Shown here: piece by piece, positions 2,031-28,702 of the stretch
How the letters are laid out: every line of letters starts with the position of its first letter
Numbering within the stretch: position 1 is the first letter of the stretch
Assembly (NCBI GenBank): GCA_034928145.1
Contig: JAYFPE010000010.1
Coordinates: 27,882-91,881, forward strand
Direction of reading: 5' to 3'
DNA: 64,000 nucleotides
DNA from: Candidatus Pelethousia sp.
Lineage (GTDB): Bacteria; Bacillota; Clostridia; Christensenellales; CAG-138
Translations under genes and position numbers: made by a program
Notes under the pieces: generated by a model
Told to the model about the DNA's origin: nothing
The model's input: only the letters and a program-made list of their open reading frames with translations
Database searches by the model: none

Positions 2031-4232
2031 ATGAAACGCGTCCTCTGTATCCTCCTGTGTTTTTCCCTGCTTTTCCCTGCCCTTGGCTGCTCCGCCCTGA
2101 GCGGGCGTGAGCTTTGCCTGGATTTCCTCACCGCCATTTCAGAAGGGGAATATGACCGGGCCTACGATATGCTGGATCCGGCCGTGCGGGCCGATCCCGT
2201 ACAGCCGGATAGCGAAAACGAGGCGGATATCGCCGCGGCCAAGCAAGCAGAGGCGGAAAAAGAGGCCAATGGCCGCATCACCAGGGAGCGCTTCAAGCAA
2301 AAATATACAGCCGTGTTCGAGGTGCTTGGCATTACGGCCGTGGCCTATGAGAACGTGGAGATCGAGGAAGGCGAAATCTTTACCACGGCCACCTATATCG
2401 GCATTTATAGCAGCGAACTGGCCGGGGATATGGAAGAGGAATTCAAGCTGGTGGCCGTGCGATCCGGCGGCCGCTGGGTGATCGAATGGGAACCCGGCAT
2501 GATCTTCCCGGATATGGAGTGGGGGGATACGGTGCGCAAGGCGGCGATCCGTGCCCAGCGCGGCGAGATCGTGGCCGATGGCCAGCTTTTGGCGGCCACG
2601 GTGGGCAAGCTCTCGGTTTACGCCGTGCCCAGCCGCATCAAGGATGTGCCTTTGTTCGCATCCCAGGCGGCCATCCTTTTGGGCATGACGGAGAGCGCCG
2701 TGCAAAAGCGCCTGGATAAGGCCTATAACGACCTCGCCGTGCTCAAGCAATTCTATACGGACGAGCTGACCGCCACGGCGCGCGAGCAGTTGCTCTCCAT
2801 CGAGGGTGTGGGCATAGACGAGGGAAACTATGCGGAGGCCCGGCAATACCCCTATGGCGATATGCTGGCCCATATCCTGGGTTATGTGGGCATGGTAAGC
2901 GCGGAAACGGCGGAGGAGGCCGAAGCCCTGGTGGATGAAATGAACCGGGGCCGGAACCCGGACGACGGCCTTTACGCAACGGATTCCCAGGTGGGCAAGC
3001 TGGGCCTGGAAAAGCAATATGAAGAGGTGCTGCGCGGCAAGGATGGCTACCGCGTTTTCATTCAGACCGGCGAGGGGCTGAACCGCCGCACCCTCTATAC
3101 CAAGCCCGTGGAGGATGGCTACGACCTGCATCTCACCATTAACCTGGCCCTGCAGGAACGGCTGGATTTCATTCTGGAGTGCGAATTGATGGATGAGGAA
3201 ACGGCTGGAGCCGTGGTTGTGATGAATCCCAGGACAGGGGCCATAGAAGCCATGGCCAGTTGGCCCAGCTACGACCTCAACCTTTTTGCCCGGGGCATCT
3301 CCAGCACGGCTTACGCCAAGCTCACCGGAAAAAAGAACACCCCGCTCTATAACCGGCTTACCCAGGGCCTTTATCCTCCCGGCTCCGTGCTCAAAGCCTT
3401 TACGGCCGCTGCGGCCCTCGATACGGGCACGTTGGATGAAACCTACGAATTCAAGGGCGAGATCGAGGATGATTACTGGCTGCCCACGGAATTCGGCCCC
3501 TGGACGGGCAGCAAGATCAAGCGCGCGCATACGGAATATCCCAAGCTGCCTACCCTCAACATGCGCCGGGCCATCATTTATTCCGATAACATCTACTTTG
3601 CCAACGCCGCCCTTTTGATGGGCTGGGAGAGGCTGGCTCCCTATATGGAAAAGGCGGGCCTCAACAGCGCTATCCCCTTTGACCTCAACGTGGCACCCCC
3701 CCAGCTTCATAACAAATCCGAAACCGACCTGAGCCTGATGCTCCTGGCGGAAAGCGGCTATGGCCAGGGACAGGTGCTGATCACGCCCTTGCAGATGGCC
3801 GCGATGTTCTGCGCCTTTGCCAACGACGGGGATGTGCCTGCGCCCTATCTGATAGACGGGCTGTATAAGGAGAACGGCATCAAATACGACACCGTGAGCC
3901 TCACCGTGCCCAAGATCTGGCGCGAGGACGTAGTGAGCGCCCACGCGCTGGAGGTTATCCTGCCGTATTTGCAGGATGTCGTTTACAGGCCGATGAACGG
4001 CACGGGCCGCCTCCTGGATGTGACGGATGTGCAGATCGCTGCAAAAACGGGCACAGCCGAGATCGGCAACGACAAGAGCCGGGAGATCGCCTGGTTCGCC
4101 GGCTTCCGCTGCGATGTGGAGCCCGAGCAGGCGCGCTTGGTGCTCGTCATGCTTGAGGTGCCCGCCAACGGCCCCTATTCCAATACCAAGTTCACCATCG
4201 CCAGAAATCTACTGCGCCTGAGCGCGCCCTAA
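2031..4232 (+). CDS. class B penicillin-binding protein (transpeptidase) with NTF2-like MecA_N-type N-terminal domain, lipoprotein
   Basis: 733-aa ORF. Signal peptide plus lipobox MKRVLCILLCFSLLFPALGC. Transpeptidase motifs SVLK (SxxK), SDN (SxN) and KTGTAE (KTG). Confidence 0.9.
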   Translation: MKRVLCILLCFSLLFPALGCSALSGRELCLDFLTAISEGEYDRAYDMLDPAVRADPVQPDSENEADIAAAKQAEAEKEANGRITRERFKQKYTAVFEVLGITAVAYENVEIEEGEIFTTATYIGIYSSELAGDMEEEFKLVAVRSGGRWVIEWEPGMIFPDMEWGDTVRKAAIRAQRGEIVADGQLLAATVGKLSVYAVPSRIKDVPLFASQAAILLGMTESAVQKRLDKAYNDLAVLKQFYTDELTATAREQLLSIEGVGIDEGNYAEARQYPYGDMLAHILGYVGMVSAETAEEAEALVDEMNRGRNPDDGLYATDSQVGKLGLEKQYEEVLRGKDGYRVFIQTGEGLNRRTLYTKPVEDGYDLHLTINLALQERLDFILECELMDEETAGAVVVMNPRTGAIEAMASWPSYDLNLFARGISSTAYAKLTGKKNTPLYNRLTQGLYPPGSVLKAFTAAAALDTGTLDETYEFKGEIEDDYWLPTEFGPWTGSKIKRAHTEYPKLPTLNMRRAIIYSDNIYFANAALLMGWERLAPYMEKAGLNSAIPFDLNVAPPQLHNKSETDLSLMLLAESGYGQGQVLITPLQMAAMFCAFANDGDVPAPYLIDGLYKENGIKYDTVSLTVPKIWREDVVSAHALEVILPYLQDVVYRPMNGTGRLLDVTDVQIAAKTGTAEIGNDKSREIAWFAGFRCDVEPEQARLVLVMLEVPANGPYSNTKFTIARNLLRLSAP

Positions 4233-4799: not shown

Positions 4800-4814
4800 T
4801 AACCATTCCCGTTC

Positions 4815-5566: not shown

Positions 5567-6958
5567 ATGAGACCGGTTATATTGAATAAGGAGGAGCTTC
5601 TGGAACATTCCTGTAAGGAATTGCGAGGCGTGGTGCTGGATGTGTTGGAACAAACCCTCCTTGAGATGGATTCATACCGATCCTTTCTGAAAAACATAAC
5701 GGTGGAAGAATCGATTCTACGCATCGGCGACCGAAGCTGGGATCTGGATAAGGCGCGCAGCGTATATTTGATCTGCGGCGGCAAGGCGGCCAATGCAACC
5801 GCCATGGCCTTGGAAACCCTGCTCGGCCCCCGGCTTACGGGGGGTGTGGTGATTGTGAAATCCCTGGAAGGCGGCGATCGTTTTTCCAAATGCGAGGTTT
5901 ATGTGGGCGGACATCCCCTATCCAATTTGGAGGGCTATCAGGGCTGCTGCCGCATATTTGAAATGCTCGAAAAGATCGGGCCCGAGGATTTGGTGATCAG
6001 CGCCATTAGCGGGGGCACCTCCGCGCTCATGGCCTGCCCCAAGCCGGGGCTGAGCCTAGAGGCGGATATTCTTACCTCGGATATCCTTTTAAAGAGCGGT
6101 GCAAACATCCATGAAATCAACTCGGTGCGGCGGCATATTTCCCGCACCAACGGCGGCAACCTGGCAAAGCAGATCGAAGCAAAGGGCGCAGAAATGATCC
6201 TGCTCATGCATGTGGACGCCATCGGCAGCGCGCCCACGCAGGAACCTTGGGTGGCAAGGCCGGTGTTCGGCGGACCCATGGCCCCGGACCCCACGACCTT
6301 GCAGGACGCTAAGAATACCATACGCAACTATGGCCTGCAGGATAAGCTGCCCCGCACGGTTGTGGAATTCCTGGAAAACAGCACTGAGGCCGATGAAACA
6401 CCCAAGGAATTAAAGCGCCATACCACCTTTGCCGTGAACACGCTGCCGGATTTAAGCGCCTGCGCGCAGCAAAAGGCTCGGAAGATGGGCATAAACGCGC
6501 ACATCCTCAGCTCCTCCATGGTAGGGGACAGCCAGCAGGCCGGGGCGTTTTTTGCAAGCCTTGCCCGGGAGATTCAAACCTTTGGAAGGCCGTATGCGGC
6601 GCCCTGCCTGCTGATCGCCTCCGGGGAGGTTTATACCATGATCGACGATCCGCGTTCCGTGCGCGGCAGCGGCGGGCCGGGGCAGGAAATGGTGGTGGCC
6701 TTTGCCTTGGCCAACCGAGATATGCCCGGCGTGTGCTTTGCCAGCATAGACAGCGAGGGCACGGATGGCCCCACGCCGGCGGCGGGCGGTATCGTGGATT
6801 CCTGCACCTATGCCTACGCCTTGGAAAAAGGGGTGGATTTGCATAAAGCGCTGCGCCGCCACTCCACCCACCAGGCGTTGGGATCGCTGGGCTGCCTGGT
6901 GTATTCCGGGAATACGGGAACAACCCTTTGCGATTTGCACCTTTTATACATCGTGTGA
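5567..6958 (+). CDS. MOFRL/DUF4147-family kinase (glycerate 2-kinase-like), paralogue 1
   Basis: 463-aa ORF. Blocks VYVGGHPLSN, EINSVRRHISRTNGG, SIDSEGTDGPT and GNTGTTLCDL are typical of MOFRL glycerate kinases, which are often mis-annotated as hydroxypyruvate reductase. Confidence 0.85.
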   Translation: MRPVILNKEELLEHSCKELRGVVLDVLEQTLLEMDSYRSFLKNITVEESILRIGDRSWDLDKARSVYLICGGKAANATAMALETLLGPRLTGGVVIVKSLEGGDRFSKCEVYVGGHPLSNLEGYQGCCRIFEMLEKIGPEDLVISAISGGTSALMACPKPGLSLEADILTSDILLKSGANIHEINSVRRHISRTNGGNLAKQIEAKGAEMILLMHVDAIGSAPTQEPWVARPVFGGPMAPDPTTLQDAKNTIRNYGLQDKLPRTVVEFLENSTEADETPKELKRHTTFAVNTLPDLSACAQQKARKMGINAHILSSSMVGDSQQAGAFFASLAREIQTFGRPYAAPCLLIASGEVYTMIDDPRSVRGSGGPGQEMVVAFALANRDMPGVCFASIDSEGTDGPTPAAGGIVDSCTYAYALEKGVDLHKALRRHSTHQALGSLGCLVYSGNTGTTLCDLHLLYIV

Positions 6959-7096: not shown

Positions 7097-7855
7097 TTAG
7101 TCGTTCCCCCAGTAAGGAAGCTCACTGAACTTAACCATGTGCTTGCCGCTGTTGCGGAAATCCAGAGGCCTGCTCCCCGTGATGGTGCGAAAAGCCCTGG
7201 AAAACGAGGACGCGTTGGTGTAGCCGATCTGCAAAGCAATATCGATGATGCGGTATTTTGTGTTGATCAACAGCTCCTTGGCTTTGTTGATGCGCAGCTC
7301 CGTTAAATATTCATTGGGCGTTTTGCCCATGTGGTTGCGGAACCAGGAGATATAGTAATTCGGATTATAGTTTTCTATACTGGCCAGCATTTCAATGGTA
7401 ATAGGCTCGGCATAGTGTGCTTCCAAAAACTGAATCGAAACATATCTGTGCTCCATAATCATTTTGGAATACAGGTATTGGAACAGGTATTGCACGCAGC
7501 GGCCGGTAGGATCGGCAACGGCCTCGCGCTGAAAAAGCTCCACCATGTTATGCAAATAGTCCGGCATGGAAAAAATGGGGGTTTGAATCAGTTCCTTTAC
7601 GTCATCCTCGGTGATCATTTCAGCCGGAATGCTTAGCCATATAACCTTTTTGGTACAAATCACCCGGTGGAATACATCCGGGTGAACATAGGCGATGGAG
7701 TTTGCGTTGAGCCAAAAATCCGTTTCATCGATGCGGATGTAAAGAATGTCGGAGGTGGGGATGAAAATATGGGCGTACTGGTGGGTATGCCCGGTTTGCT
7801 GACTGGGGATAAAGTCGTAATTGCATTCGATCTTCAGCACGGGCGCGCCCTCCAA
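7097..7855 (-). CDS. AraC-family transcriptional regulator
   Basis: 252-aa ORF. C-terminal double HTH ..INKAKELLINTKYRIIDIALQIGYTNASSFSRAFRTITGSRPLDFR. N-terminal cupin-like sensor region. Divergent from MOFRL paralogue 2. Confidence 0.85.
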   Translation of the reverse strand: MEGAPVLKIECNYDFIPSQQTGHTHQYAHIFIPTSDILYIRIDETDFWLNANSIAYVHPDVFHRVICTKKVIWLSIPAEMITEDDVKELIQTPIFSMPDYLHNMVELFQREAVADPTGRCVQYLFQYLYSKMIMEHRYVSIQFLEAHYAEPITIEMLASIENYNPNYYISWFRNHMGKTPNEYLTELRINKAKELLINTKYRIIDIALQIGYTNASSFSRAFRTITGSRPLDFRNSGKHMVKFSELPYWGND

Positions 7856-7905: not shown

Positions 7906-8058
7906 CTGTCAAGCCGCAATACAGATTTATCCATAAAAACATGAATTTACGGAACGATCTGTATGAGTTTGAGCATATATGATTTTCCATAAGTGTGGTA
8001 CCATAGTACTCGCACATAGTATTATCTTTAATTATTACAGAATATTCACAAGGATTGG

Positions 8059-9465
8059 GTGGCGCAGGTGTACGAAATCAAAAAGATTCGCAATTACGAA
8101 CAACTTATTGGAAAGGGCGATTCGATTGCCAGGCAAAAGGTTCTTCAGCTTATGGACGCGGTGCTTCAGGAAGTGGATGCGGGCAAACGCATCCGGGAAA
8201 TTATGCGGCTCGATGGCGACATCCTCACGGTGGGTTGCCGCACGTGGGATCTCGCGAAAAAGCGCAACATCTACCTGATTGGCGCGGGCAAGGCCTGCAA
8301 CGCCATGGCGGAGGCGGTTTGCGATATTCTGGGAGAGCGCATCACCAAGGGCATTATTTCTATCAAAATTCAAGAGGAAACCGATCGCTATTGTAACACG
8401 GAGGTTTACGTGGGCGGGCATCCGCTCCCCAACCGTGAGGGCATGGTGGCGGCCCAGCGCATGATCGAGCTGATCAACGCCGCGGGGCCGGAGGATCTGT
8501 TTGTGGCTGTAACATCGGGCGGCAGCTCGGCGCTTCTGACCTATCCCGTGGATGGCATCACCCTGGAGGAAGAAATCGTAGCCCAAGATTTGCTGCTCAA
8601 GAGTGGCGCGAAGATCGTGGAGATCAACGCAGTTCGCCGGCACATTTCCCGCACGAACGGGGGCAGGCTGGCCGAGCTTATTTGCAACCGGGCGGGCGCG
8701 GAGCTCATCAGCCTCATGGTGAGTGATGGCGTGGGCCTCCCCAGCACGGCGCAAAGGGGTGTTCCCACCACCTTTTCGGGCACGCCGGTGGCGCCGGACG
8801 CCACCACCATTCAGGATGCGCGCAATATGATTATTAACTACGACTTGGCCCAAAAGCTGCCGGCCAGCATTGTGGACTATGTGATGGACGATGCGCGCAT
8901 TCGCGAAACCCCCAAGGCGTTCGATGAAAAACTAACCACTTTCCTGGTGGGGAGCATTGCCGATTCCTGCGAAGCGGCGATTGAGGCGGCTGAAAAGATG
9001 GGCGATTCCATTATGGTGCTCACCACTTTTCTGGAAGGCGAAAGCCGGGAAGCGGGCCACCTTCTCTCCTCCATAGCCCGCGAAATCAAAACGCTCAACC
9101 GGCCCATCAAAGCGCCATGCTTTTTAGTTTGCGCGGGGGAAACCACCACCAGCATCAATACCCCGCCCGCCGGCATGGGAGGCCCCTCACAGGAATTGGT
9201 TCTGGGGTTCAGCATCGGCATCAAGGATTATCCCGGGGTGGCGGCGGCTTCCATCGATACAGAAGGAACGGATGGAACGACGATATACGCCGGCGGCATT
9301 TGCGATAGAACCACCTTCGGCGCGCTGGAAGCAGCCAGCATAAACGTTTACGAAGCGCTTCGGTCCCATGCGAGCGGCAACGCTCTCCTGGCCATTGGAG
9401 ATAACATTTTCACGGGGAACACGGGCACCAACCTATGCGACCTCAATGTGATTTACATTGCGTAA
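8059..9465 (+). CDS. MOFRL/DUF4147-family kinase (glycerate 2-kinase-like), paralogue 2
   Basis: 468-aa ORF with a GTG start at 8059 (GTG 8068 is an alternative). Same conserved blocks as paralogue 1: VYVGGHPLPN, EINAVRRHISRTNGG, SIDTEGTDGTT, GNTGTNLCDL. Confidence 0.85.
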   Translation: MAQVYEIKKIRNYEQLIGKGDSIARQKVLQLMDAVLQEVDAGKRIREIMRLDGDILTVGCRTWDLAKKRNIYLIGAGKACNAMAEAVCDILGERITKGIISIKIQEETDRYCNTEVYVGGHPLPNREGMVAAQRMIELINAAGPEDLFVAVTSGGSSALLTYPVDGITLEEEIVAQDLLLKSGAKIVEINAVRRHISRTNGGRLAELICNRAGAELISLMVSDGVGLPSTAQRGVPTTFSGTPVAPDATTIQDARNMIINYDLAQKLPASIVDYVMDDARIRETPKAFDEKLTTFLVGSIADSCEAAIEAAEKMGDSIMVLTTFLEGESREAGHLLSSIAREIKTLNRPIKAPCFLVCAGETTTSINTPPAGMGGPSQELVLGFSIGIKDYPGVAAASIDTEGTDGTTIYAGGICDRTTFGALEAASINVYEALRSHASGNALLAIGDNIFTGNTGTNLCDLNVIYIA

Positions 9466-9507
9466 ATGTAACTTAATTTCAAATAATCAAAAAAGGGGAT
9501 GTCAATC

Positions 9508-10794
9508 ATGCAAGGGAACAAGATTAAAGCGGTAAAGGCCAGGCAGGTACTCGATAGCAATGGCCGACCAGTGGTTGAAGTGGATATCGTTACCGAAAGC
9601 GGGCATTTGGGCCGGGCAGGCGCCTCCACCGGATCTTCCGTGGGCGCGAACGAATCCTTTGTGCTTAGAGATAACGATCCCAAGATCTTTTTCGGCACGA
9701 GCGTATACAAGGCGGTGGATAACGTGAACCGCGTGATAGCCCCCGCCCTGATCGGCATGGATGTGCACGACCAGGCCGGGATCGACAAGAAGATGATCGA
9801 GTTGGATGGCACCCGCTATAAAACCAACCTGGGCGGGAACGCCATCTTCGCAACATCTTCCGCCGTAGCTTACGCGGCGGCGGCATTTAACCGCAAGCCG
9901 CTTTTCCAGAACGTTGCGCAGGGCCCCGTCAAGTATGTGTTCTCCCTTTCCTCCAATGTGGTAAACGGCGGCACCTACGGGGATAAGACCCTGGCCTTCC
10001 AGGAATTCATGGTATTGCCACACAGCGTGCCCTCTGCGCATGAGGCCGTGCGTATCATCGTGGAAGTGTTCCACCATCTGGGGGAGGTTATCAAGAAATA
10101 CAACGGCAAACCTGCGGCCATGGGCAATTACAGCGGCTATGGCGCCCCCTCGGATGACCCCTTTGTGGTATTCGAAATGATCAGCCAAGCCGTAAAAGAT
10201 TTGGGCTACGAAAAGAATGTGGCCTATGCCATGGATTGCGCGAGCAGCGAGTATTACAACACCAAGGAAGGCGCTTATGAATACCGGGGCGAGCTGGTAG
10301 GCCGGGATAAGATCATTTCCATTCTTGCCGAGCTTTCCAACAAATACCCCATCGCCTTTGTGGAGGATGCGCTGGAGGAGGAGGATTTTGAGGGCTTTAA
10401 GCTGGCCAGCGAAAAAATTAACTCCGTGATCATCGGAGACGACTTCCTGTGTAGCAGCATGGATCGCTCGCAAAAGGCCGTGGAGATGGGCGCGGCCCGG
10501 GGCATGATTTTCAAGCCCAACCAGGCCGGTACCATTACCGAGGCCATGGAAACCGCCCGCTATATGATCGACAAGGGCCTTCTGGTGGTGCCCTCCGGCC
10601 GGGCTGGCGGCACGCTGGATTCCCCGGATAAGGAACTGGGCCTGGGGCTGGGCTGCTACACCGTTAAAAGCGGCGCGCCCCGCAGCGGCGACCGGACGGC
10701 AAACCTGAATTTTGCCATGCGGGTGGAAGAAGAGCTGGGCATCCCCATGATCAACATCGTAGACCTGCCGATTTTCAGCCACTTGAAACGCTAG
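9508..10794 (+). CDS. divergent enolase-family protein (enolase paralogue with altered catalytic residues)
   Basis: ORF 9499..10794. ATG 9508 is preferred because AAGGGG lies 9 nt upstream. Collinear with canonical enolase over its full length (VLDSNGRPVVEVD, GASTG, DQAGIDKKMIELDG, FQEFMVLP, AMDCASSEYY, VEDALEE, IGDDF, FKPNQAG, VKSG, RVEEELG). NGGEHAD is replaced by NGGTYGD, GDEGGYAP by GNYSGYGAP, and SHRSGETED by SGRAGGTLD. Confidence 0.85.
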   Translation: MQGNKIKAVKARQVLDSNGRPVVEVDIVTESGHLGRAGASTGSSVGANESFVLRDNDPKIFFGTSVYKAVDNVNRVIAPALIGMDVHDQAGIDKKMIELDGTRYKTNLGGNAIFATSSAVAYAAAAFNRKPLFQNVAQGPVKYVFSLSSNVVNGGTYGDKTLAFQEFMVLPHSVPSAHEAVRIIVEVFHHLGEVIKKYNGKPAAMGNYSGYGAPSDDPFVVFEMISQAVKDLGYEKNVAYAMDCASSEYYNTKEGAYEYRGELVGRDKIISILAELSNKYPIAFVEDALEEEDFEGFKLASEKINSVIIGDDFLCSSMDRSQKAVEMGAARGMIFKPNQAGTITEAMETARYMIDKGLLVVPSGRAGGTLDSPDKELGLGLGCYTVKSGAPRSGDRTANLNFAMRVEEELGIPMINIVDLPIFSHLKR

Positions 10795-10850
10795 TATAAA
10801 TGCCTGAACGTAAAAGGCTTTTACTAAAAAATAAAAAGGAGAGAAAACAA

Positions 10851-12488
10851 ATGAAGAAGCTACTCAAAAATGGGTTAATGCTGTTCGTATGCGCCATGAT
10901 GCTGCTCACCCTGGTTGCCTGTGCCAAGCAAAGCCAGCCAGCGGCCCCGGGCACCGCACCCGCCGAGCAGAGTGGCAACCCGCTGGCCACCGAAGACGGA
11001 TTCGGCATGATCGTTTCCGCCGACCCCACCGGTATCGTGTCCAGCAAGGATTCCATGACGGTGGTCGTTGCCGCGGATCCCGGTTCGCTGGATCCGCATG
11101 ACAACGTGCAGCAGCAAAAGCACCAGTCCACCCGCCAGATTTATGAGACCCTTGTCGTTTACAATGACAACGGCGAGCTCATTCCCTGGCTGGCTGAAAG
11201 CTGGGAGTATGAGAACGACTTAACGCTGGTGTTCCACATTCGCAAGGGCGTTAAGTTCCACAATGGGGACGAGCTCAAGGCCAGCGACGTTCTCTTCTCC
11301 TTCAAGCGGATGCGTAGCGACAACACGCCCGCCGCCATGCAGGTGAACAAGGTGGATTTTGACAAGTGCGAAGTGGTGGATGATTACACCCTTAAGCTTG
11401 TTACCTCCGAGCCCTATGCCTTGCAGCTTCCCATGCTGGAGAACCCCCTGTGCGGCATCATCAGCGAGCGCAGCTATACGGAAAGCAAGGGCGATTTCAA
11501 CGCTTCCCCCGTGGGCACCGGCCCTTATAAAGTTGTGAAGTTCGTTGCGGGCGATAGCCTTACCCTGGAAGGCTTTGACGGCTACTGGATCGCCGGCCAG
11601 CCCTATGTTAAGCACGTGACCCTGCGCTACATCAACGATTCTTCCTCCCGCGCGATCGAGGCGGAGAGCGGCGGAAGTGATATCGTATACGAGATCAGTG
11701 CGAACGATGTGGACCGCGTGCGGGAAAACCCCAACATCAACCTGGTTTCCGCCATGGGCGCGAACACCAGCTACCTGTATATGAACCTGGCCCATGCCCC
11801 GCTGGATAACATAAAGGTGCGCGAGGCCATATGGTATGCGCTGGATGTCCCCGGTGCGATCGATGTGGCTTACGGCAGCTTCGGCAAACTAGCCGATGGC
11901 GTGATCTCCCCCGGCATCGACGGCCGCCACCCGGATATGAGCGCCTACTTCCCCAAGCAGGATCTGGAAAAGGCCAAGGCGCTTCTCGCGGAAGCCGGCT
12001 TCCCGAATGGTTTCACCACCGAGATTTCCTGCAACAGCTCCGACCAGCAGCGCAAGGATTTTGCTGAGGCCATTCAGGCGCAGTTGGCGCAGGTTGGCAT
12101 TACCCTTAACATCAACGTGATGGATACTTCCACCTTCGCCACCTACCTTTCTGAAGGCAAGGGCAAGATGTGCATCTATGGCCTGACCGCCAGCACCGGC
12201 GAGGCCGGCCGTACCCTGTTCCGCTGGCTGCCGGATACCTCCGAATGGCCCCTGTCAAGCTGGGAGAGCCAAGAGTATTATGATCTAATCAGCAAGGCGC
12301 TGGTTACCACCGATACTGCCGCGCGCAACGAGATGTACTACCGCTGCCAGGAGATGCTGATGGAGAACTTCATCGTTTATCCCGTGTGGCACAAAGAGCT
12401 CAACGCGGCATGCCAGCCCGGCATCGCAGGCTTCCGGATCACGCCCTCTTACGAGCAGCACTATCTGCAGTTCGTATACTTCCAATAA
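10851..12488 (+). CDS. ABC transporter substrate-binding lipoprotein, family 5 (Opp/Dpp/Nik-type)
   Basis: Start placed at ATG 10851 (AAGGAG upstream). Signal peptide plus lipobox MKKLLKNGLMLFVCAMMLLTLVAC. About 545 aa, with family-5 SBP features. Confidence 0.85.
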   Translation: MKKLLKNGLMLFVCAMMLLTLVACAKQSQPAAPGTAPAEQSGNPLATEDGFGMIVSADPTGIVSSKDSMTVVVAADPGSLDPHDNVQQQKHQSTRQIYETLVVYNDNGELIPWLAESWEYENDLTLVFHIRKGVKFHNGDELKASDVLFSFKRMRSDNTPAAMQVNKVDFDKCEVVDDYTLKLVTSEPYALQLPMLENPLCGIISERSYTESKGDFNASPVGTGPYKVVKFVAGDSLTLEGFDGYWIAGQPYVKHVTLRYINDSSSRAIEAESGGSDIVYEISANDVDRVRENPNINLVSAMGANTSYLYMNLAHAPLDNIKVREAIWYALDVPGAIDVAYGSFGKLADGVISPGIDGRHPDMSAYFPKQDLEKAKALLAEAGFPNGFTTEISCNSSDQQRKDFAEAIQAQLAQVGITLNINVMDTSTFATYLSEGKGKMCIYGLTASTGEAGRTLFRWLPDTSEWPLSSWESQEYYDLISKALVTTDTAARNEMYYRCQEMLMENFIVYPVWHKELNAACQPGIAGFRITPSYEQHYLQFVYFQ

Positions 12489-12539
12489 GAGCATAGAACA
12501 TAGGCATTGACATTCGCACGTAGTACTCCTGATAAAAGG

Positions 12540-12578
12540 GCTACGCAGGCTGCCTATCCTGCCTGCGTAGCATCTTTT
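12540..12578 (+). terminator. intercistronic hairpin / partial terminator between the SBP and permease genes
   Basis: GCTACGCAGG (12540-12549) pairs with CCTGCGTAGC (12562-12571), followed by ATCTTTT. Confidence 0.5.
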
Positions 12579-12615
12579 GATATGAAATCGAACTATATTT
12601 AGGTGGTGTGAATCT

Positions 12616-13614
12616 TTGATTCGATATATTTTAAAACGAATTCTTATGATGCTTCCCGTCCTCGTGGGGATAATCACCATCGTGTTTACATTAATGTATT
12701 TCACGCCTGGAGATCCCGCGTTATCCATTCTGGGTGAAAACGCAACCCCGGAGCAGGTGTCGCAGATTCACCAAGAGTTGGGATTAGATGATCCGTACAT
12801 CGTGCGCCTGGGGCGGTATCTTTGGAATGCCGCGCAGGGCGATTTTGGCACCTCCTATAGAACCGGCAACCCGGTTATCCAGGAGATTATGGATCGTTAT
12901 CCCAACACCTTAAAACTGGCTGTTCTGAGCACATTCTTAGGCATCATCATCGGGGTTACGGCGGGCATCATATCCGCTGTGCGCCAATATTCCTTCCTTG
13001 ATAGAGCCCTGACTACCTTTTCCCTTTTCGGTGTGTCCGCGCCTTCCTTCTGGATCGCGATGCTGCTGGTTCTGCTTTTTTCGCTAAATTTTAAGTGGCT
13101 GCCGGCCACGGGAAGCTACGGCCCTATTTATTGGGTGCTGCCGGTGTTTACGCTGGGCCTGCAGGCGAGCGCCTCCATCATGCGCATGACCCGCTCCAGT
13201 ATGCTGGAGGTTATCCGGCAGGATTACGTGCGCACCAGCAAGGCCAAGGGGCAAAGCAGCTTCCTTACCATTATGCGGCACGCCTTCAAAAATGCCCAGG
13301 TGCCCATCGTAACGACCATCGGCATTCGTATTACCGGCTTTTTGGCGGGCGCGGTGCTGGTGGAAACCGTATTTGCGATCCCCGGCCTTGGCAAGTATAT
13401 TGTGGATAGCGTTGGGTTTAAGGATTACCCCGTTGTTCAGGGCGGCGTTTTGTGGATCGGCTTCAACTGCGTGGTGATCAACCTGCTGGTGGATATTATC
13501 TACTGCCTCATTGATCCGCGCGTTAAATCGCAATATGCATCTAAGAAAAAGAAAAAGCCCGCGGCCCTAAGCGCAAGGCCGGCCGAGGAATGCGGAGGTG
13601 AGGATCGTGGTTGA
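12616..13614 (+). CDS. ABC transporter permease (DppB/OppB-like)
   Basis: 332-aa ORF with a TTG start after AGGTGG. N-terminal MIRYILKRILMMLPVLVGIITIVF..FTPGDP is typical of DppB-type permeases. Six TM segments. Confidence 0.85.
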   Translation: MIRYILKRILMMLPVLVGIITIVFTLMYFTPGDPALSILGENATPEQVSQIHQELGLDDPYIVRLGRYLWNAAQGDFGTSYRTGNPVIQEIMDRYPNTLKLAVLSTFLGIIIGVTAGIISAVRQYSFLDRALTTFSLFGVSAPSFWIAMLLVLLFSLNFKWLPATGSYGPIYWVLPVFTLGLQASASIMRMTRSSMLEVIRQDYVRTSKAKGQSSFLTIMRHAFKNAQVPIVTTIGIRITGFLAGAVLVETVFAIPGLGKYIVDSVGFKDYPVVQGGVLWIGFNCVVINLLVDIIYCLIDPRVKSQYASKKKKKPAALSARPAEECGGEDRG

Positions 13615-14485
13615 TACCGTAGAAAAAATCCCTCTAAAAAAGAAAAAGATATCCCTCGCCCAAGAGGTGATCAAGCGGCTCATGCGCAATAAGATGGCTG
13701 TGGCCGGCCTGGTTATTTTGGTTGTGGTGCTGCTTTCCTCCCTGCTTGCGCCCTTGCTTTCGCCCTATGACTATGCCACACAGAATTATGGGGAACGCTT
13801 TGTTTTCCCAAATTGGGCACATCCCTTTGGAACGGATAACTTTGGTCGGGATATTCTGACCAGGGTTCTCTATGGCGGCCGGTATACGCTCTTTATCGCG
13901 TTTGTGGTTACCAGCATCGCGGCCGTGGCCGGGGCGCTTGTGGGGCTGTTCGCGGCCTATTTCCCCAAGAGCGATAACATTCTGATGCGCACCATCGATA
14001 TCTTCATGGGCATTCCCCAGATGATGATGTGCGTGAGCATCATCGCGGCGCTGGGCGGCAGTATGAAAAACATGATGATTGCGCTAACGATTACGGCAAC
14101 GCCCGAGTTCGCCCGGATCATGCGGGCGCAGGTGCTTACCCTTAAGGACCAGGAGTTTGTGGAAGCCGCCCGCTCGATCGGCGGCAGTAATCTGCGCATC
14201 ATGTTCCGCCACATCCTTCCCAATGCGTTGGCGCCCATTATCGTGCAATATACCCTGGGCGCGGTCAATACCATCCTGATGAGCGCATCTTTGAGCTTCG
14301 TGGGCATGGGTGTGCAGCCGCCCACGCCGGAGTGGGGCCTGATGATATCCGCAGGTCGCGCCTACCTGCGTGATTATTGGTATGTGGCCATCCTCCCGGG
14401 CCTGGCCATCATCGTGGCGTCCTATGCGTTGAATCTGCTGGGCGATGGATTGAGGGACGCCCTTGACCCGCGCCTAAAGCGATAA
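13598..14485 (+). CDS. ABC transporter permease (DppC/OppC-like)
   Basis: 295-aa ORF that overlaps the upstream permease by 17 nt. Contains [10 protein letters not shown] and an EAA-like loop ([24 protein letters not shown]). Confidence 0.85.
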
Positions 14486-14498
14486 AGGAGGGATGAAC

Positions 14499-15488
14499 AT
14501 GCACCCGCAAGAACAAACGCTGCTGCAAATCAAAGAATTGGTTGTGCACTATATTGTGGATAAAGATGTTGTGGAATCCGTAAACAACATTACGCTTTCC
14601 CTAAACGAGGGGGAAACGCTGGGCCTAGTGGGTGAAACCGGCGCCGGCAAAACCACCACGGCATTGAGCATTATGGGGCTTATCCCCAACCCGCCGGGCA
14701 AGGTCGTGGGCGGTGAAATCTTCTATAACGGGCTGGACCTGCTCAAAAAAACGGATAAGGAGATGAGAAAGATACGGGGCAAGGATATTGCCATGATCTT
14801 TCAAGACCCCATGACCTCCCTTAACCCTGTTATTACCGTGGGCGATCAGATCATGGAGGCGATCCAGCTCCACGAAAAGAGCAGTAAGGCCGAGGCCGCG
14901 GCCAAGGCAAAGCAAATGCTGGAGCTTGTGGGCATTTCCGGCGAGCGGTATGGGGAATACCCCCATCAGTTCTCCGGCGGCATGAAGCAGCGCGTGGTAA
15001 TTGCCATGGCGCTGGCCTGCAACCCCCGGATTCTCATTGCGGATGAGCCCACCACCGCGCTAGATGTAACCATCCAGGCGCAGGTGCTGGATATGATGAA
15101 GCGGCTCAAGAGCGAATACAACACGGCTATGCTGCTTATTACCCATGACTTGGGCGTGGTGGCCGAGGTGTGCGATAAGGTTGCCATCATGTATGCGGGG
15201 GAGATCGTGGAAAACGGTGCGCTGCGGGATGTGTTCGGCCAGCCTTCCCATCCTTATACCCTGGGCCTGTTCAACTCCATTCCGGATTTGGACTCCACGG
15301 CGGAAAGGCTGCAAGCCATAAGCGGCCTGGTTCCGGATCCTTCCAACCTGCCGAGCGGGTGCAGGTTCCATCCCCGCTGCCAGTATGCGATGGAAAGGTG
15401 CGCACAGCAGAACCCGCCTGCCTTTGAAATGACGCCGGAGCACCATGTGAAGTGCTGGAAATTTGCCAAGGATGAGGGGGCGCGGTAA
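14499..15488 (+). CDS. ABC transporter ATP-binding protein (DppD/OppD-like)
   Basis: Walker [10 protein letters not shown], signature FSGGMKQR, Walker [13 protein letters not shown], and the C-terminal oligopeptide-type extension. ATG 14499 is preferred over 14493 on RBS spacing. Confidence 0.9.
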
Positions 15489-15489
15489 T

Positions 15490-16452
15490 ATGGAAACCTT
15501 ATTGGAAGTTAAGCATCTTAAAAAACATTTTAACACTAAGTCCGGCTTGCTCCACGCGGTGGATGACATCAGCTTCACTCTGGAAAAAGGCAAGACCCTT
15601 GGTGTGGTGGGGGAATCCGGCTGCGGCAAATCCACCCTGGGCCGGGTTATCCTACACCTGTTGGAGGCAACGGAGGGGCAGATCCTGTTCAAGGGGCAGG
15701 ATATATCCAAGCCCGGCAAAAGAGAGCTGCACCATTTGCGCCGGAATATGCAGATGGTGTTCCAGGATCCTTTCTCCTCCCTGAACCCGCGCTTTTCCGT
15801 GGCGGAAATCATCGGGGAGCCCCTACTGATCTATAAGGCCTGCAAAACCAAAGAGAAATACCGGGATAGGGTGCGCAACATAATGGAAACCGTAGGCCTG
15901 CCCGAGCGGTATGAAAACGTATATCCCCATGAGCTGGATGGCGGCCGCCGCCAGCGCATCGGCCTGGGCCGGGCTCTAGCCCTGAACCCGGAGTTTATTA
16001 TTTGCGATGAGCCCGTATCGGCCTTGGATGTATCCATCCAGGCCCAAATTCTTAACCTTTTGCAGGATTTGCAAGCGAAGCGGAACCTGACCTATATTTT
16101 CGTTACCCACGATCTATCCGTGGTCAAGCATATCTCGGATGAGATCATGGTTATGTATCTTGGGGTTATGGTGGAAAAGTGCCCCTCCGCGGATCTGTTT
16201 GCCAAGCAGCTCCACCCTTACACAAAGGCTTTGCTCAGCGCCATTCCGCAGGCCAAGTTGGATATAAAGCGGGATCGCATCCTGCTTAGGGGCGAGTTGA
16301 CTTCCCCCATCAATCCGGCCCCCATATGCCGGTTCGCAGCCCGCTGCAACTATGCCTGCGATGCGTGCCTGCAAAAGCAGCCACCGCTGGAGGAAGTGCT
16401 GCCCGGCCATTTTGTGGCGTGCCACAGGGTTCGCGAGATCAACGATTTATAA
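15490..16452 (+). CDS. ABC transporter ATP-binding protein (DppF/OppF-like)
   Basis: Start at METLLEVKHLKK, 1 nt after the upstream stop. Walker A GESGCGKST, Walker B FIICDEPVSALD, and a Cys-rich C-terminal tail. Confidence 0.9.
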   Translation: METLLEVKHLKKHFNTKSGLLHAVDDISFTLEKGKTLGVVGESGCGKSTLGRVILHLLEATEGQILFKGQDISKPGKRELHHLRRNMQMVFQDPFSSLNPRFSVAEIIGEPLLIYKACKTKEKYRDRVRNIMETVGLPERYENVYPHELDGGRRQRIGLGRALALNPEFIICDEPVSALDVSIQAQILNLLQDLQAKRNLTYIFVTHDLSVVKHISDEIMVMYLGVMVEKCPSADLFAKQLHPYTKALLSAIPQAKLDIKRDRILLRGELTSPINPAPICRFAARCNYACDACLQKQPPLEEVLPGHFVACHRVREINDL

Positions 16453-16478: not shown

Positions 16479-17654
16479 ATGCACGTTACAGAGGTAAATG
16501 TTTACCTGGTTGATACAGGCAGTTTTCGCCCGGTCGTTGTGGAGCTAGTTACGGATGAAAACATTGTAGGCATAGGCGAGGGTGCCGTAGGCTTTGGCGT
16601 GGGTTGCCACGGAGCCGCCCACATGGCTGCAGAACTGGCCGAGCGGTTTGTGATTGGTAAGGATCCTTCTGCCATCGCCTCCATTTGGAACGATTTCTAT
16701 TACGATACCTTCTGGGGCAAGGGCGCGGGCGCCATCTTTTATGCGGCCGTAAGCGCCATAGAGCAGGCGCTTTGGGATATCAAGGGCAAGGCGCTGGGCG
16801 TGCCGGTCTACGAGCTTTTGGGCGGTAAGCAGCGGGATAAAATCCGCGTTTACGCCAACGGCTGGTCCGAGGGCAAGTGCGTAACCGCACAGGATTTTGC
16901 CGACCGGGCGGTAGAGGTGGTGGAGCAGGGCTACACCGCCATCAAGATGTATCCCCTCAGCCAGATCGATCCGATCCGGGGCCTGAACAGGCATCTAAAA
17001 AACCGGGAGGTCAGCAAGGCGGATTTTCGCAGAGCCGTGGATGCGGTGCGCCTAGTTCGTGAGGCCGTTGGACCGGATATCGATATCATGGTGGATGTTA
17101 CGGCGGAGGGCACAACGGACGCCATGTTCCAGTTGGCCCAGGCCATTGAACCCTATGATATTTTCTGGTTTGAAGAGGCCATGGACGCCTTTGATGTAGA
17201 TGCCTACATGACGGTTCGCCAAAAGACCAACCTTACCCTGACGACCGGGGAACGCCTTTATACCCGATATGGCTTCCGCCGCCTGTTTGAAACGCGCGCG
17301 GTGGATATCGTGCAGCCCGATCCCGGCACTTGTGGCGGCATCCTGGAGCTTTTTCACATTGCGGCAACGGCAGAGACCTATAACATGCGCGTGGCGCCCC
17401 ACAACTGCGGCGGCCCGGTACTTTGCGGCGCGGCCCTCCAGCTCGCGGCCTGCGTGAGCAACCTTGCCATCCAGGAGATCTTCCCCTTCCATGGGGATAT
17501 GCACTACTCTATTGTGGAAGAAGCGTTTGAGAAAAAGGTAAATAATGGATATGTGGATGTACCCACGGCCCCCGGCCTGGGCATAACGCTCAACCACAAG
17601 GTGGTGGATCCGTTCCGCATCGCGCACATAACCCTCAAAAACAGGGGCGCTTAA
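16479..17654 (+). CDS. enolase-superfamily (mandelate racemase/muconate lactonizing enzyme) protein, DgoD-like acid-sugar dehydratase
   Basis: 391-aa ORF. [27 protein letters not shown]. Metal-ligand blocks DIMVDV, FWFEEA, TTGERLY. VQPD and VAPHNCGGP align by eye with E. coli DgoD. Confidence 0.8.
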   Translation: [391 protein letters not shown]

Positions 17655-17805: not shown

Positions 17806-18529
17806 ATGAAAACACCAGTATTACAAGAGAATCATAGCGAAAAATCGAGCGGAGTGCAAGTGGAGATGCCGCTGGATTTGGGAATGCGCATCGAAGCAGG
17901 AAATACGATGAGGACGCTGATCCATGGAAAGGATGGATTACAGCGAATTGACCCAAACATACCAGCGCCGGCCACGCAGGGGCTAGGCGACGCCGAAGCA
18001 GCTGTTTGGGATCGTAGTCCTGGTGTTCGTGAACGGGCAGTTTTTCACGCGAAAAATAGAGATGGCATCCCGAAATGATATTCGGTTCATGTATCTGCTG
18101 AGCGGAAACCGCGCGCCCGATCACAGCAGACTAGTAAGCTTTACCAGTGAACACCTAAAGGATGGAGTGCTGGAGCGATTATTCTATCAGATGGTGGAGA
18201 TGCTCAAGGAACAGGGGGAAATCAGCTTTAAGCACCTGGATGGAACAGAGATCGAGGCGAACGCCAATCGATACAGCTTTGTATGGGCGAAATCCACGAG
18301 CAAATATGTGGCGCGGGCGGATGAAAAGCTTAGTGCGCTGCTCGATCGCCTGACGCTGGAGTACGGGATTGTGCGCGGTGCCGCTAAAGCATACTGGGAA
18401 ACACTGCTGGAGAGAAAGGAAGCGGCAATAGTTAAAGGCTGCCGCGCCTTTCTTAACACGACAGCCCCATTTGTAGGCTATACCGAACTACACGCCCTGC
18501 ATCTTCGGCCTCTTCCAATCATCCCTTGA
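17806..18529 (+). pseudogene. IS1182-family transposase remnant (frameshifted N-terminal part; DDE catalytic region missing)
   Basis: Three frames together read ..EMPLDLGMRIEAGNTMRTLI.. / ..MDYSELTQTYQRRPRRG.. / ..RKIEMASRNDIRFMYLLSGNRAPDHSRLVSFTSEHL..LDGTEIEANANRYSFVWAKS.., blocks typical of the IS1182 transposase N-terminus. There is no intact ORF, and homology stops after about 240 codons. Confidence 0.7.
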
Positions 18530-21500: not shown

Positions 21501-21725
21501 CTTCATGGTGCGGTAGCGGGGGATGATATCCTTGATGGCCCGGGTGAGAATATGGCCGATGTGGGGCTTGCCGTTGGCCGTGGGCGGCCCGTCGTAAAAG
21601 GTATAGGCCGGCGCGCCGCGGCGCAGCTCCACGCTCTTTTCAAAAATGCGCTGCTCTTTCCAAAAAGCCAGCGTGGCTTTTTCGCGTTCCGTAAAGTCGA
21701 GGGATGTGGAAACCTTTTTATACAT
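18597..21725 (-). CDS. ileS: isoleucine--tRNA ligase, long (type 2-like, 1042 aa) form
   Basis: HIGH motif PHIGHILTR, KMSKS motif LKMSKHKGN, a CP1 editing insertion, and class Ia architecture. Confidence 0.95.
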   Translation of the reverse strand: MYKKVSTSLDFTEREKATLAFWKEQRIFEKSVELRRGAPAYTFYDGPPTANGKPHIGHILTRAIKDIIPRYRTMKGYDVLRKAGWDTHGLPVELEVERQLGLDGKEQIEAYGVMPFIEKCKESVWKYKGEWEEMSDRVAFWADMDDPYVTYEDNYIESEWWALKTIHEKGLLYKGHKVVPYCPRCGTALSSHEVAQGYKDIREESATVRFRCLDEDASYLAWTTTPWTLPSNVCLCVNADVAYCHAQKNGETFILAKELAKDVLGEDAVILDEFPGSALVGRSYAPLFDCTATACQKTGKRGHYVIADDYVTTTDGTGIVHNAPAFGEDDARVCKEHDMPFIQLVNTRGEMTAGTPWDGVFVKEADKLILRDLKEAGLLFASPEFEHSYPFCWRCDTPLIYYARESWFIRMTAIKDKLIEYNRRINWIPETIKEGRMGNFLENVIDWGISRERYWGTPLPVWLCKDCGHIHVVGSRKELCELAPSTPADIELHKPFLDPMTVPCPKCGREMKREGAVIDCWFDSGSMPFAQWHYPFENKELFERRYPANFISEAVDQTRGWFYTLLAISTCLFDEPSFQNCLVLGLVQDKDGLKMSKHKGNVVDPWTVLDNQGADAVRWYFYTASMPWLPSRFSPEAVSEAQRKFMGTLWNTYAFYVLYAEIDGFDPTAHTLHREALTPMDLWILSRLNSLIRTVDGHMDAIRITEAGRELQRFTDDLSNWYVRRCRERYWGKEMTADKEAAYMTLYAVLKSLCLISAPFIPFMTEEIYQNIVRSVDKTAPDSIHLCDWPAVDESYINKDLEAHMDEVLSIVVLGRSARNTAAIKNRQPIPAMHVQGEELPAMFTSIISEELNVKRVEYVGDAASFISYRVKPQLKTLGPRYGKILPKINAYLAQDGIGDAVVAAHNEGHDYTFELEGVVVSLSPEDVLVSTGQKEGFVAEAGRDRSVALDIRLTPELIDEGFVRELVSKVQTMRKEAGFEVTDHILLTHTSSSKLADIFARFEADIAADTLADQVRAGVAAGYAKEWDINGEAVTLGVQKV

Positions 21726-27487: not shown

Positions 27488-27703
27488 ATTTGCCTGTAAA
27501 ACCGGGGGCATAATAAACGGCTATCTTCCCAAACAGACGCTGCAAAGGATGAGCCCCAAGTCCACCCCCCGCATAGGATCGCCCCCCCATGTAGGGATTT
27601 TACATGGAATTAACACGGCAAGGATTTTCGATTTAACCCGCGTGCATTAAATTTGTATCATAAGTAAAAAAGAAGAAGGAAGAATACAAGGAGGAAAATG
27701 AAA

Positions 27704-28618: not shown

Positions 28619-28628
28619 GCGAACGAAC

Positions 28629-28663
28629 GAAGCCGGAGGTCGCCGGGGACCGGCCCCGGCTTC
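28629..28663 (+). other. intercistronic stem-loop between pstS and pstC
   Basis: GAAGCCGG (28629-28636) pairs with CCGGCTTC (28656-28663), with an inner GGTC/GACC pairing. Confidence 0.4.
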
Positions 28664-28702
28664 CCTGCGCCTGCGGGGAACCAATCCGTTAAAGGAGCTG
28701 CC

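Follow-up and report, generated by a model that had tools for sequence, protein, structure and literature searches.

We analysed a 64,000-nucleotide stretch of DNA from Candidatus Pelethousia sp. (assembly GCA_034928145.1, contig JAYFPE010000010.1, positions 27,882 to 91,881), referred to below as the window, and focused on an enolase-like gene, E (9508..10794, + strand), whose open reading frame (ORF) translates into 428 amino acids. We propose that E is an active Mg2+-dependent enzyme from a sister clade of the canonical enolases, and that it follows a MOFRL-type kinase as the second enzyme of a two-step module, using the 2-phospho-hydroxy-acid which that kinase makes; judging from sequence and gene context, we put the probability of this reading at about one half. 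The chemistry or the substrate of E probably differs from the dehydration of 2-phosphoglycerate (2-PG), and E is probably not the glycolytic enolase of the cell. The proposal is carried by the replacement of three catalytic residues around an intact metal- and phosphate-binding core, by the conservation of this pattern throughout a clade, and by the linkage of the clade's genes to kinase genes.

Fold and active site of the enolase-like protein

E matches both Pfam domains of the family (Enolase_N, 3.6e-44; Enolase_C, 6.9e-60) and aligns end to end with solved enolases, best with that of M. jannaschii (2pa6, 1e-87), so that the collinearity with canonical enolase claimed in an initial annotation of this DNA holds over the whole length. 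An AlphaFold model built from a 72-sequence alignment (mean predicted local distance difference test, pLDDT, 95.5; predicted template-modelling score, pTM, 0.93) gave a TM-score of 0.93 against solved enolases. The best identity of E to any solved chain is merely 33–40%, hence its group has no solved structure. The barrel of the enolase superfamily is recognised both by the TM-score and by the conservation of the base K336 and of D243, E286 and D311, the metal ligands found where strands 3, 4 and 5 end. On MR_MLE_C, the Pfam model of the mandelate racemase/muconate lactonising enzyme (MR/MLE) C-terminal domain, E scored 21.4 bits and MR_MLE_N gave no match; because the MR_MLE_C score lies under the 29.4-bit cutoff, E is placed outside the MR/MLE subgroups of the superfamily; by sequence it falls clearly within the enolase subgroup. 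The NCBIfam 'eno' equivalog TIGR01060 gave 353 bits against a cutoff of 300, and a standard pipeline would therefore call E a phosphopyruvate hydratase.

The start of the gene is supported by an AAGGGG ribosome-binding site that ends 9 nt 5' of the ATG at 9508 and by the N-termini of homologues, which align with this start. The alternative in-frame ATG at 9499 is less likely to be used, because it overlaps the ribosome-binding site. An antisense open frame of 426 aa (9502-10782, −) spans nearly all of E and similar ones are present at, for example, 2139-3944 and 8035-8853; these long antisense ORFs are most likely composition artefacts, not genes.

Residue equivalences were taken from a MAFFT alignment with the yeast, E. 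coli and M. jannaschii enolases, from the HMMER alignment and from the codon map, all of which agreed; the yeast ENO1 reference was checked against PDB 1ebg, with which residues 1-436 match with one conservative difference. E retains the Mg(II) ligand S39 of the yeast enzyme (S44 in E), the Mg(I) ligands D246, E295 and D320 (D243, E286 and D311), the proton-abstracting K345 (K336; codon AAG, 10513..10515, +, invariant), R374 (R365), K396 (K387) and the pair Q167/E168 (Q165/E166), in agreement with the initial annotation as far as the three Mg ligands, both lysines and the phosphate-binding Arg are concerned. D210-E211-G212 is replaced by N207-Y208-S209 (GNYSG), with Tyr208 (codon TAC, 10129..10131, +) at the position of the general acid Glu211. 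His159, which makes the closing-loop contact with phosphate and hydroxyl, is replaced by Tyr157 (NGGTYGD; codon TAC, 9976..9978, +), and His373 by Gly364 (SGRAGG; codon GGC, 10597..10599, +). S375 is A366 and E377 is G368; Ser293 is replaced by Phe and Thr40 by Val. The substitutions at 211, 159 and 373 had been spotted by eye, and both aligners confirm them.

Two points of the initial annotation did not survive alignment. A catalytic Glu, E168, was said to have been lost from the 'GGEHA' motif; E168, which is itself essential in canonical enolase, sits in QEFM instead and is retained as E166 (codon GAA, 10003..10005, +), as it is in 120/120 of the relatives described below and in all 83 genes of the loci and the window. 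The Glu of E. coli 'GGEHA' is variable even among canonical enolases, being Ser in yeast and Lys in M. jannaschii. The GASTG lid loop was said to be four residues longer; the HMMER and MAFFT alignments are gapless here and pair TGSSVG with SGASTG, which places the Mg(II) ligand S39 on S44, and the 'GASTG' string further upstream in E is an out-of-register coincidence. Among the catalytic Glu and His positions, the alignment thus leaves E211, H159 and H373 unoccupied by such residues, but keeps a Glu at 168. Of the hallmarks of a canonical enolase, E has the fold, the equivalog score, the metal ligands, Glu168 and the counterparts of K345, K396 and R374, and lacks Glu211, His373 and His159.

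The roles of these residues have been dissected in the enolase of Mycobacterium tuberculosis, where Lys335 (yeast K345) removes the C2 proton, Ser42 (S39) binds the second Mg (MgB), Arg364 (R374) binds the phosphate, and His154 (H159) contacts phosphate and hydroxyl and drives loop closure (PMC10619443). Glu204, the equivalent of E211, performs the hydroxyl step in that enzyme; the E204A substitution abolishes this capacity, and both E163A and E204A retained phosphoenolpyruvate (PEP) in co-crystals (PMC10619443). In E, Gly at position 373, small or hydroxyl-bearing residues at 211/212 and Phe at 293 suggest that the C3 pocket is reshaped and probably roomier.

A clade of enolase-like proteins without Glu211 and His373

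A search of 5.8 billion proteins yielded at least 120 clusters of relatives with 48–100% identity to E, and 120 were audited. The substitutions of E recur in them with H159Y in 114, E211Y in 118, E377G in all 120 and H373G in 104 (Ser in 10 more), and S39, E168, D246, E295, D320, K345, R374 and K396 are each unchanged in 120/120. Conserved substitutions together with an invariant core point to a working enzyme under purifying selection rather than to decay. A recent degenerate pseudogene was also considered and rejected, because the signature is conserved and the clade (below) is deeply monophyletic. That E might be a catalytically dead pseudoenzyme, kept as a scaffold or regulator of the kinase, is very improbable: the loss of three canonical catalytic residues and the fusion to the kinase in some lineages would fit such a role, but in a protein that does not catalyse one would hardly expect the metal ligands, the base Lys, the phosphate-binding Arg, E168 and K396 to be invariant across phyla.

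We then considered the genes in their genomes. A scan of one genome per species gave 79 loci and L001 was added, making 80 loci from many phyla with 82 enolase-like genes, or 83 with the window's own. No canonical enolase is found among the 83, and E211 and H373 are missing from all of them. A canonical eno gene was found neither in the window nor in the flanks fetched for the loci, and E. coli complete genomes gave no match to a clade member.

The genes fall into three signature groups that differ at positions 211-212, which read Y-S in group A, S-Y in group B and V/L/H/M-S in group C. Group A, to which E belongs, carries G-N-Y-S-G with Q167 and occurs in Clostridia, Enterocloster lavalensis and Paratissierella. 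Group B, the largest, carries x-S-S-Y-G with N167 and was found in Lachnospiraceae, Paenibacillus, Arthrobacter, Mycobacterium, Pseudomonas, rhizobia, Pantoea and Burkholderia. Group C, from Acidobacteriota, a Bathyarchaeota metagenome-assembled genome and some Bacillota, is a residual class that is non-monophyletic in the tree; seven of its eight members have Val, Leu, His or Met at 211 and Ile or Val at 373, and the eighth, L026, has Ser and Gln. Changes relative to canonical enolases that run through the whole clade are N16R/K, T40V/A, E47V, A107G, H159Y, G212S/Y, S293F/Y, L343I, H373G/I, E377G and R402S/N.

In a neighbour-joining tree with the three canonical references the clade is monophyletic, as are groups A and B each. 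The canonical enolases of yeast, E. coli and M. jannaschii share 52–59% identity with one another, against 31–42% between clade members and any of them. A profile search of 1.84 billion representatives at 50% identity returned, in its top 150, about 20 proteins without E211 and H373; canonical enolases start at rank 7, and the signature S-H-Q-E-E-G-D-E-D-K-H-R-E/D-K is present in 111 of the 150, always with E211. Since 111 of these 150 representatives of the wider family are canonical, the E211/H373 deviation is specific to the clade. Taken together, sequence comparison indicates a clade that is old, distinct, under purifying selection and of modest size, in which E would represent an uncharacterised sister family inside the enolase subgroup. 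TIGR01060 does not separate this clade, as the three signature groups all score 347–378 bits, over the cutoff of 300, and public records label clade members 'phosphopyruvate hydratase' or 'enolase'. Literature searches turned up no account of the E211/H373-less clade, nor any that ties MOFRL kinases to an enolase-like enzyme.

A further variant class appeared among the representatives, with E211 kept, E168 changed to Asp and H373 to Ala or Gly (signature S-H-Q-D-E-G...K-A/G-R-E/D-K; P0212, P0229, P0231, P0250, P0261, P0268 and P0237). P0237 is a protein of 745 aa whose enolase part starts at residue 334. This class may be another functionally divergent enolase family.

Linkage and fusion to MOFRL kinases

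Neighbourhoods were drawn with a simple ORF heuristic, which mis-calls some high-GC genes, and kinase adjacency was cross-checked by tblastn. In the window, a gene for a MOFRL kinase, K2 (8059..9465, +; DUF4147 and MOFRL in Pfam), lies directly upstream of E at a distance of 42 nt; that such a kinase adjoins E had been annotated. A MOFRL kinase adjoins the enolase-like gene in 64 of the 80 loci, nine of them as fusions, and is found within 4 kb in 5 more. In the nine fusion loci and in the representative P0121, a single protein of 894–931 aa has the order DUF4147-MOFRL-Enolase_N-Enolase_C. The deep clade, the 64 kinase-adjacent loci and the nine fusions support the earlier suggestion of a fold able to enolise, stripped of a hydroxyl-handling residue and fed by the kinase; the suggestion overstated the loss, as E168 is found in every member, and some residual or alternative form of dehydration may therefore persist.

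Group-B genes are plasmid-borne in Brucella anthropi (the conjugative pOANT01) and in rhizobia; the records there name a 'DUF4147 domain-containing protein' and, after it, an 'enolase C-terminal domain-like protein' or 'enolase'. The presence of relatives on conjugative and accessory plasmids favours an accessory role.

Several loci depart from the simple pair. Tandem enolase-like duplicates are present in L003:8702-11278 (Enterocloster lavalensis), L004:4231-7083 and L085:6702-9284; in L003 and L004, the two whose residues were audited, one copy has Gly373 and Ser402 and the other Ser373 and Glu402, which suggests two substrate specificities per operon. A Mycobacterium/Actinomycetota sub-branch of group B shows no MOFRL kinase in the DNA retrieved (L064, L066, L068, L069, L071, L074, L076, L078, L079 and L080), and in L071, L074, L079 and others the enolase-like gene stands beside a two-component system and a small membrane protein. 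L084:7125-13130 holds a 51%-identical member of group A that has no adjacent kinase and whose neighbours are an RpiR regulator, a mannose-family phosphotransferase system (PTS) EIIC/EIID protein and an SSF transporter; here phosphorylation may fall to the PTS instead of a kinase.

In a distant branch (P0128, P0131 and P0133), an N-terminal His_Phos_1 domain, of the phosphoglycerate-mutase/histidine-phosphatase type, is fused to a non-canonical enolase-like domain, a fusion independent of the one with the kinase. At the corresponding loci (L088:8001-9854, L090:8001-9854 and L091:8001-9854) no kinase was seen nearby, and the genes found are an MR/MLE gene, a 2-hydroxy-acid dehydrogenase, an ATP-binding cassette (ABC) importer, creatinase/M24 genes and a cucumopine-synthase-like gene. 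The MR/MLE gene beside the fusion in L088 is 41% identical to the MR/MLE gene of the window described next. Contigs with P0128 were too short for context.

The operon and its neighbours

K2 is preceded in the window by a paralogous MOFRL kinase gene, K1 (5567..6958, +; Pfam), 44% identical to K2 by BLASTP, and paired kinases also occur in L002 and L007. An AraC-family regulator (7097..7855, −; Pfam HTH_18 and HTH_AraC) is divergent from K2, and L001 has an AraC-family gene upstream of its kinase in the same position. The nearest solved structures to K2 are PH0495 (1x3l) and the TM1585 glycerate kinase (2b8n), and K2 falls far under the glycerate-2-kinase equivalog cutoffs (170 bits vs 550).

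Downstream of E lies a five-gene ABC importer (10800..16452, +; ORFs, SBP_bac_5 match), made up of a family-5 solute-binding protein (10800-12488, +), two permeases (12616-13614 and 13598-14485, +) and two ATPases (14493-15488 and 15463-16452, +). The binding protein is nearest to YliB/GsiB, AgaA and DppA, that is, to binders of glutathione, agropinic acid and dipeptides, and is an ambiguous clue to the substrate. The last gene of the operon, M (16479..17654, +; Pfam MR_MLE_N and MR_MLE_C), encodes an MR/MLE-family homologue of acid-sugar dehydratases. Its top NCBIfam match is galactonate dehydratase, at 268 bits and below the cutoff of 311; the nearest solved structure is 2poz, and with its nearest structures being unannotated 'putative dehydratases', M too is an ambiguous clue to the substrate. 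From K2 onward the intergenic gaps are 42, 5, 127, -17, 7, -26 and 26 nt, and gaps within this range of -26 to 127 nt indicate a single operon.

Past the operon come a transposase remnant and then the housekeeping genes for IleRS and FtsH. The remnant is a short ORF (18023-18529) with a weak transposase-domain match (DUF772, 7.9e-5), situated between the end of the operon and the IleRS gene (18597-21725, −), and may be left from the event that placed the cluster here. Base composition gave no island signal, the GC content of the cluster genes being 0.48–0.58 against 0.572 for the window. No Rfam riboswitch match at E <= 0.1 was obtained between positions 4800 and 18600, and a promoter/terminator scan gave counts not above those of shuffled sequence. 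About 10 kb downstream of the cluster, at 27698-34105, are genes for a pst-type phosphate ABC transporter and a sensor histidine kinase. In L083:1-6329, a phosphate ABC transporter, PhoU, a response regulator and a histidine kinase stand immediately upstream of a trio of kinase, enolase-like and MR/MLE genes, which suggests that the regional synteny is conserved between this locus and the window.

In group A, an MR/MLE enzyme is the constant third partner. Orthologues of M with 63–69% identity are present in L001, L002 and L005, and further MR_MLE genes in L083, where the bare trio is flanked by unrelated housekeeping genes, and in L085, where the layout of the window (kinase, enolase-like, ABC importer, MR/MLE) is repeated with the enolase-like gene duplicated. 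In group B, a recurrent neighbour (27/66 loci) encodes an ornithine cyclodeaminase (OCD)/mu-crystallin enzyme, which PGAP names 'tyramine oxidase subunit B'. The copy 3' of the kinase/enolase-like pair on pOANT01 (L081:10318-11439) matches NCBIfam NF004848, of that same name, at 534 bits, and its next-best matches are the SbnB family and an archaeal alanine dehydrogenase. Other genes recurring in group B encode tripartite ATP-independent periplasmic (TRAP) transporters, LarA-type racemase/epimerase homologues, glutamate dehydrogenase, M20 peptidase, hydantoinase A/B, aldehyde dehydrogenase and RpiR or GntR regulators. The TRAP binding protein scores 170–227 bits against 4p47, 7bbr, 4nq8 and 4pdd, and about 117 against the chain named C4-dicarboxylate DctP. 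No third enzyme is conserved clade-wide.

This context favours a sugar-acid-like substrate, given the MR/MLE homologue, the RpiR (SIS-domain) regulators, the LarA homologues and the TRAP scores. Duplicated kinases and enolase-like genes would suit sets of stereoisomers. Sulfolactate/sulfite chemistry was set aside, no sulfite-handling genes being found among the conserved neighbours, and a retro-aldol or decarboxylative route to phosphoglycolate was set aside as wasteful and its product as toxic.

The same neighbours bear on two other reactions. E could be a racemase or 2-epimerase of a 2-phospho-hydroxy-acid, interconverting for instance L-2-PG and D-2-PG or 2-phospho-aldonate epimers, with Lys336 on one face, the strand-2 Tyr (208/209) on the other, and elimination suppressed by the loss of Glu211 and His373. 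Barrel strand 2 ends at position 211, opposite the strand-6 Lys, and racemising members of the superfamily carry their second acid/base there (K166 in mandelate racemase, K169 in muconate lactonising enzyme); groups A and B do have a Tyr at 211 or 212. The recurrence of nearby LarA-type homologues suggests that stereoisomer pairs matter, and the duplicated genes would again fit stereoisomeric substrates. We nevertheless hold this reaction to be improbable, since group C has no Tyr at 211/212, since ATP spent merely on an epimerisation would be unusual, and since a 2-phospho product other than D-2-PG needs a further enzyme, none of which is conserved throughout the clade.

Alternatively, the phosphate itself would be the leaving group. 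The kinase would activate a 2-hydroxy-1,4-dicarboxylate (a tartrate or malate stereoisomer, or beta-hydroxyaspartate), and E would take the proton alpha to the other carboxylate and expel phosphate, giving fumarate, enol-oxaloacetate or an enamine for the OCD-family reductase. On chemical grounds, kinase-plus-lyase pairs commonly expel phosphate and need no general acid for it, which would fit the loss of E211 and H373. DcuC and DctPQM-type carriers, LarA homologues and an OCD/mu-crystallin enzyme distantly related to the iminosuccinate reductase BhcD are found nearby, as are a tautomerase and pyruvate carboxylase in B. anthropi; the LarA family includes malate racemase. We still regard this route as distinctly doubtful. 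The invariance of Arg374 and of the Mg(II) ligand S39 points to a phosphate still carried on the alpha carbon; the TRAP binding protein lies nearer to other solved binding proteins than to the chain named C4-dicarboxylate DctP; and ATP would be wasted where ATP-independent dehydratases exist for such acids. To our knowledge, phosphate elimination has no precedent in the enolase superfamily.

Proposed function

We favour a route in which E, with an altered chemistry or substrate, acts behind its kinase. Firstly, the adjacent MOFRL kinase would phosphorylate the 2-hydroxyl of a carboxylic acid, as its family membership and gene linkage suggest. Secondly, E would bind the resulting 2-phospho-acid through the conserved two-metal site (S44, D243, E286 and D311), with Arg365 holding the phosphate and Lys387 and Gln165 the carboxylate, and Lys336 would take the alpha proton to form a metal-stabilised enediolate. 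Thirdly, this intermediate would be resolved without the hydroxyl-expelling machinery of Glu211, His373 and His159, most likely by beta-elimination from a C3 position unlike that of D-2-PG, where Glu166 would be the sole remaining carboxylate. What results would be PEP or a similar enol phosphate, entering central metabolism directly: with no third enzyme conserved across the clade and with the trio of kinase, enolase-like and MR/MLE genes able to stand alone, the product should be a central metabolite or close to one, and these are the simplest candidates.

Among the possible substrates, gene context speaks most for a 2,3-dihydroxy acid resembling a sugar acid, with either a longer chain than D-glycerate or another configuration; L-2-phosphoglycerate and 3-amino- or 3-sulfo-substituted 2-phospho-acids are also possible. 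Extended to the clade, the proposal is that the enolase subgroup holds a second ancient and widespread family, working in a two-step route with a MOFRL kinase (in one branch, with a fused mutase-type domain) from a 2-hydroxy acid other than D-glycerate to PEP or a PEP-like enol phosphate; we judge the chances of this to be even. Candidate acids for such a route are a sugar acid, L-glycerate, and 3-amino- or 3-sulfo-lactate.

A number of observations weigh against this proposal. The residue that replaces E211 is inconsistent between the groups, so that a new chemistry is not defined by the sequences. The kinase was not seen in the DNA retrieved for 11 of the 80 loci, 10 of which belong to the Mycobacterium/Actinomycetota branch, and at L084 a PTS transporter takes its place. 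The reading of the TRAP scores depends on several of 4p47, 7bbr, 4nq8 and 4pdd being sugar-acid binders. Others fit an ordinary enolase: all three signature groups score above the curated eno cutoff; Glu168 is kept everywhere and might act as the acid, permitting ordinary dehydration of 2-PG; the non-phosphorylative Entner-Doudoroff pathway has five enzymes, of which an MR/MLE dehydratase, a MOFRL kinase and an enolase are three; and the fusion of mutase-type and enolase-type domains mimics lower glycolysis.

These last points lead to the reading in which E is a genuine 2-PG enolase of a catabolic operon, the kinase making D-2-PG from D-glycerate and Glu166, perhaps with Tyr208 or Tyr157, serving as the acid. 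Besides the equivalog score and the neighbours that encode three Entner-Doudoroff steps, it can draw on the retention of E168, K345, K396, R374 and both metal sites, on the resemblance of the His_Phos_1 (cofactor-dependent phosphoglycerate mutase type)/enolase-like fusion to the glycolytic mutase/enolase pair, and on the fact that MOFRL kinases of known function are glycerate 2-kinases (PMC2063504). Yet we consider it unlikely. E211 is present in all 111 canonical representatives of the top 150, and without it the capacity for the hydroxyl step is abolished (PMC10619443); two further residues, H373 and H159, are missing too, and residue 211 varies from group to group. A housekeeping enolase would make a dedicated copy needless, and the kinase linkage, the fusions and the tandem duplicates would be left unexplained. 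The clade is, moreover, farther from the canonical enolases than these are from each other across three domains of life.

Significance

Few enzymes are understood as well as enolase, whose subgroup is commonly credited with a single function. If the proposed function of E is correct, central carbon metabolism would gain a new reaction, and with it probably a short new catabolic route, in gut Clostridia, soil Actinomycetota and plant-associated Pseudomonadota, and the MOFRL/DUF4147 kinases would acquire a second physiological role beyond that of glycerate 2-kinase. It would also expose a systematic annotation error, since all signature groups pass the curated eno model and public records are named accordingly, and metabolic reconstructions may credit organisms with enolase copies that they do not have. 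The clade would then amount to a natural experiment in reprogramming the fate of an enediolate intermediate.

Comparison with known systems

Compared with canonical enolase (EC 4.2.1.11; yeast ENO1, 1ebg; E. coli Eno; M. jannaschii MJ0232, 2pa6), E has the same two-domain fold at 36–41% identity and shares the Mg(I) ligands, the Mg(II) Ser, Lys345, Lys396, Gln167/Glu168 and Arg374. It differs in lying in a catabolic-type operon, where canonical enolase is a housekeeping gene, and in belonging to a clade whose members are tied to a kinase by gene linkage or fusion.

The lower branch of the non-phosphorylative Entner-Doudoroff pathway in Thermoproteus and Picrophilus combines an MR/MLE gluconate dehydratase, a MOFRL glycerate 2-kinase and an enolase (PMC2063504). 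The cluster of the window encodes the same three families; unlike that branch, it has no aldolase and no aldehyde-oxidising enzyme, its kinase and dehydratase fall well under the equivalog cutoffs of the characterised Entner-Doudoroff enzymes, and its enolase member is without the catalytic acid.

Within the enolase superfamily, mandelate racemase, muconate lactonising enzyme and methylaspartate ammonia-lyase share metal-assisted abstraction of an alpha proton, with a strand-6 Lys as base. A variable position on strand 2 sets the fate of the intermediate, and the leaving group of methylaspartate ammonia-lyase needs no acid. E, unlike these other subgroups, has the enolase-specific second metal site and the phosphate-binding Arg. 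Lastly, phosphosulfolactate synthase ComA converts PEP and sulfite into 2-phospho-3-sulfolactate with Mg, hydroxide being neither the leaving nor the attacking group; although its sequence family is unrelated, this is, by analogy, the kind of reaction that the rebuilt C3 pocket of E could support.

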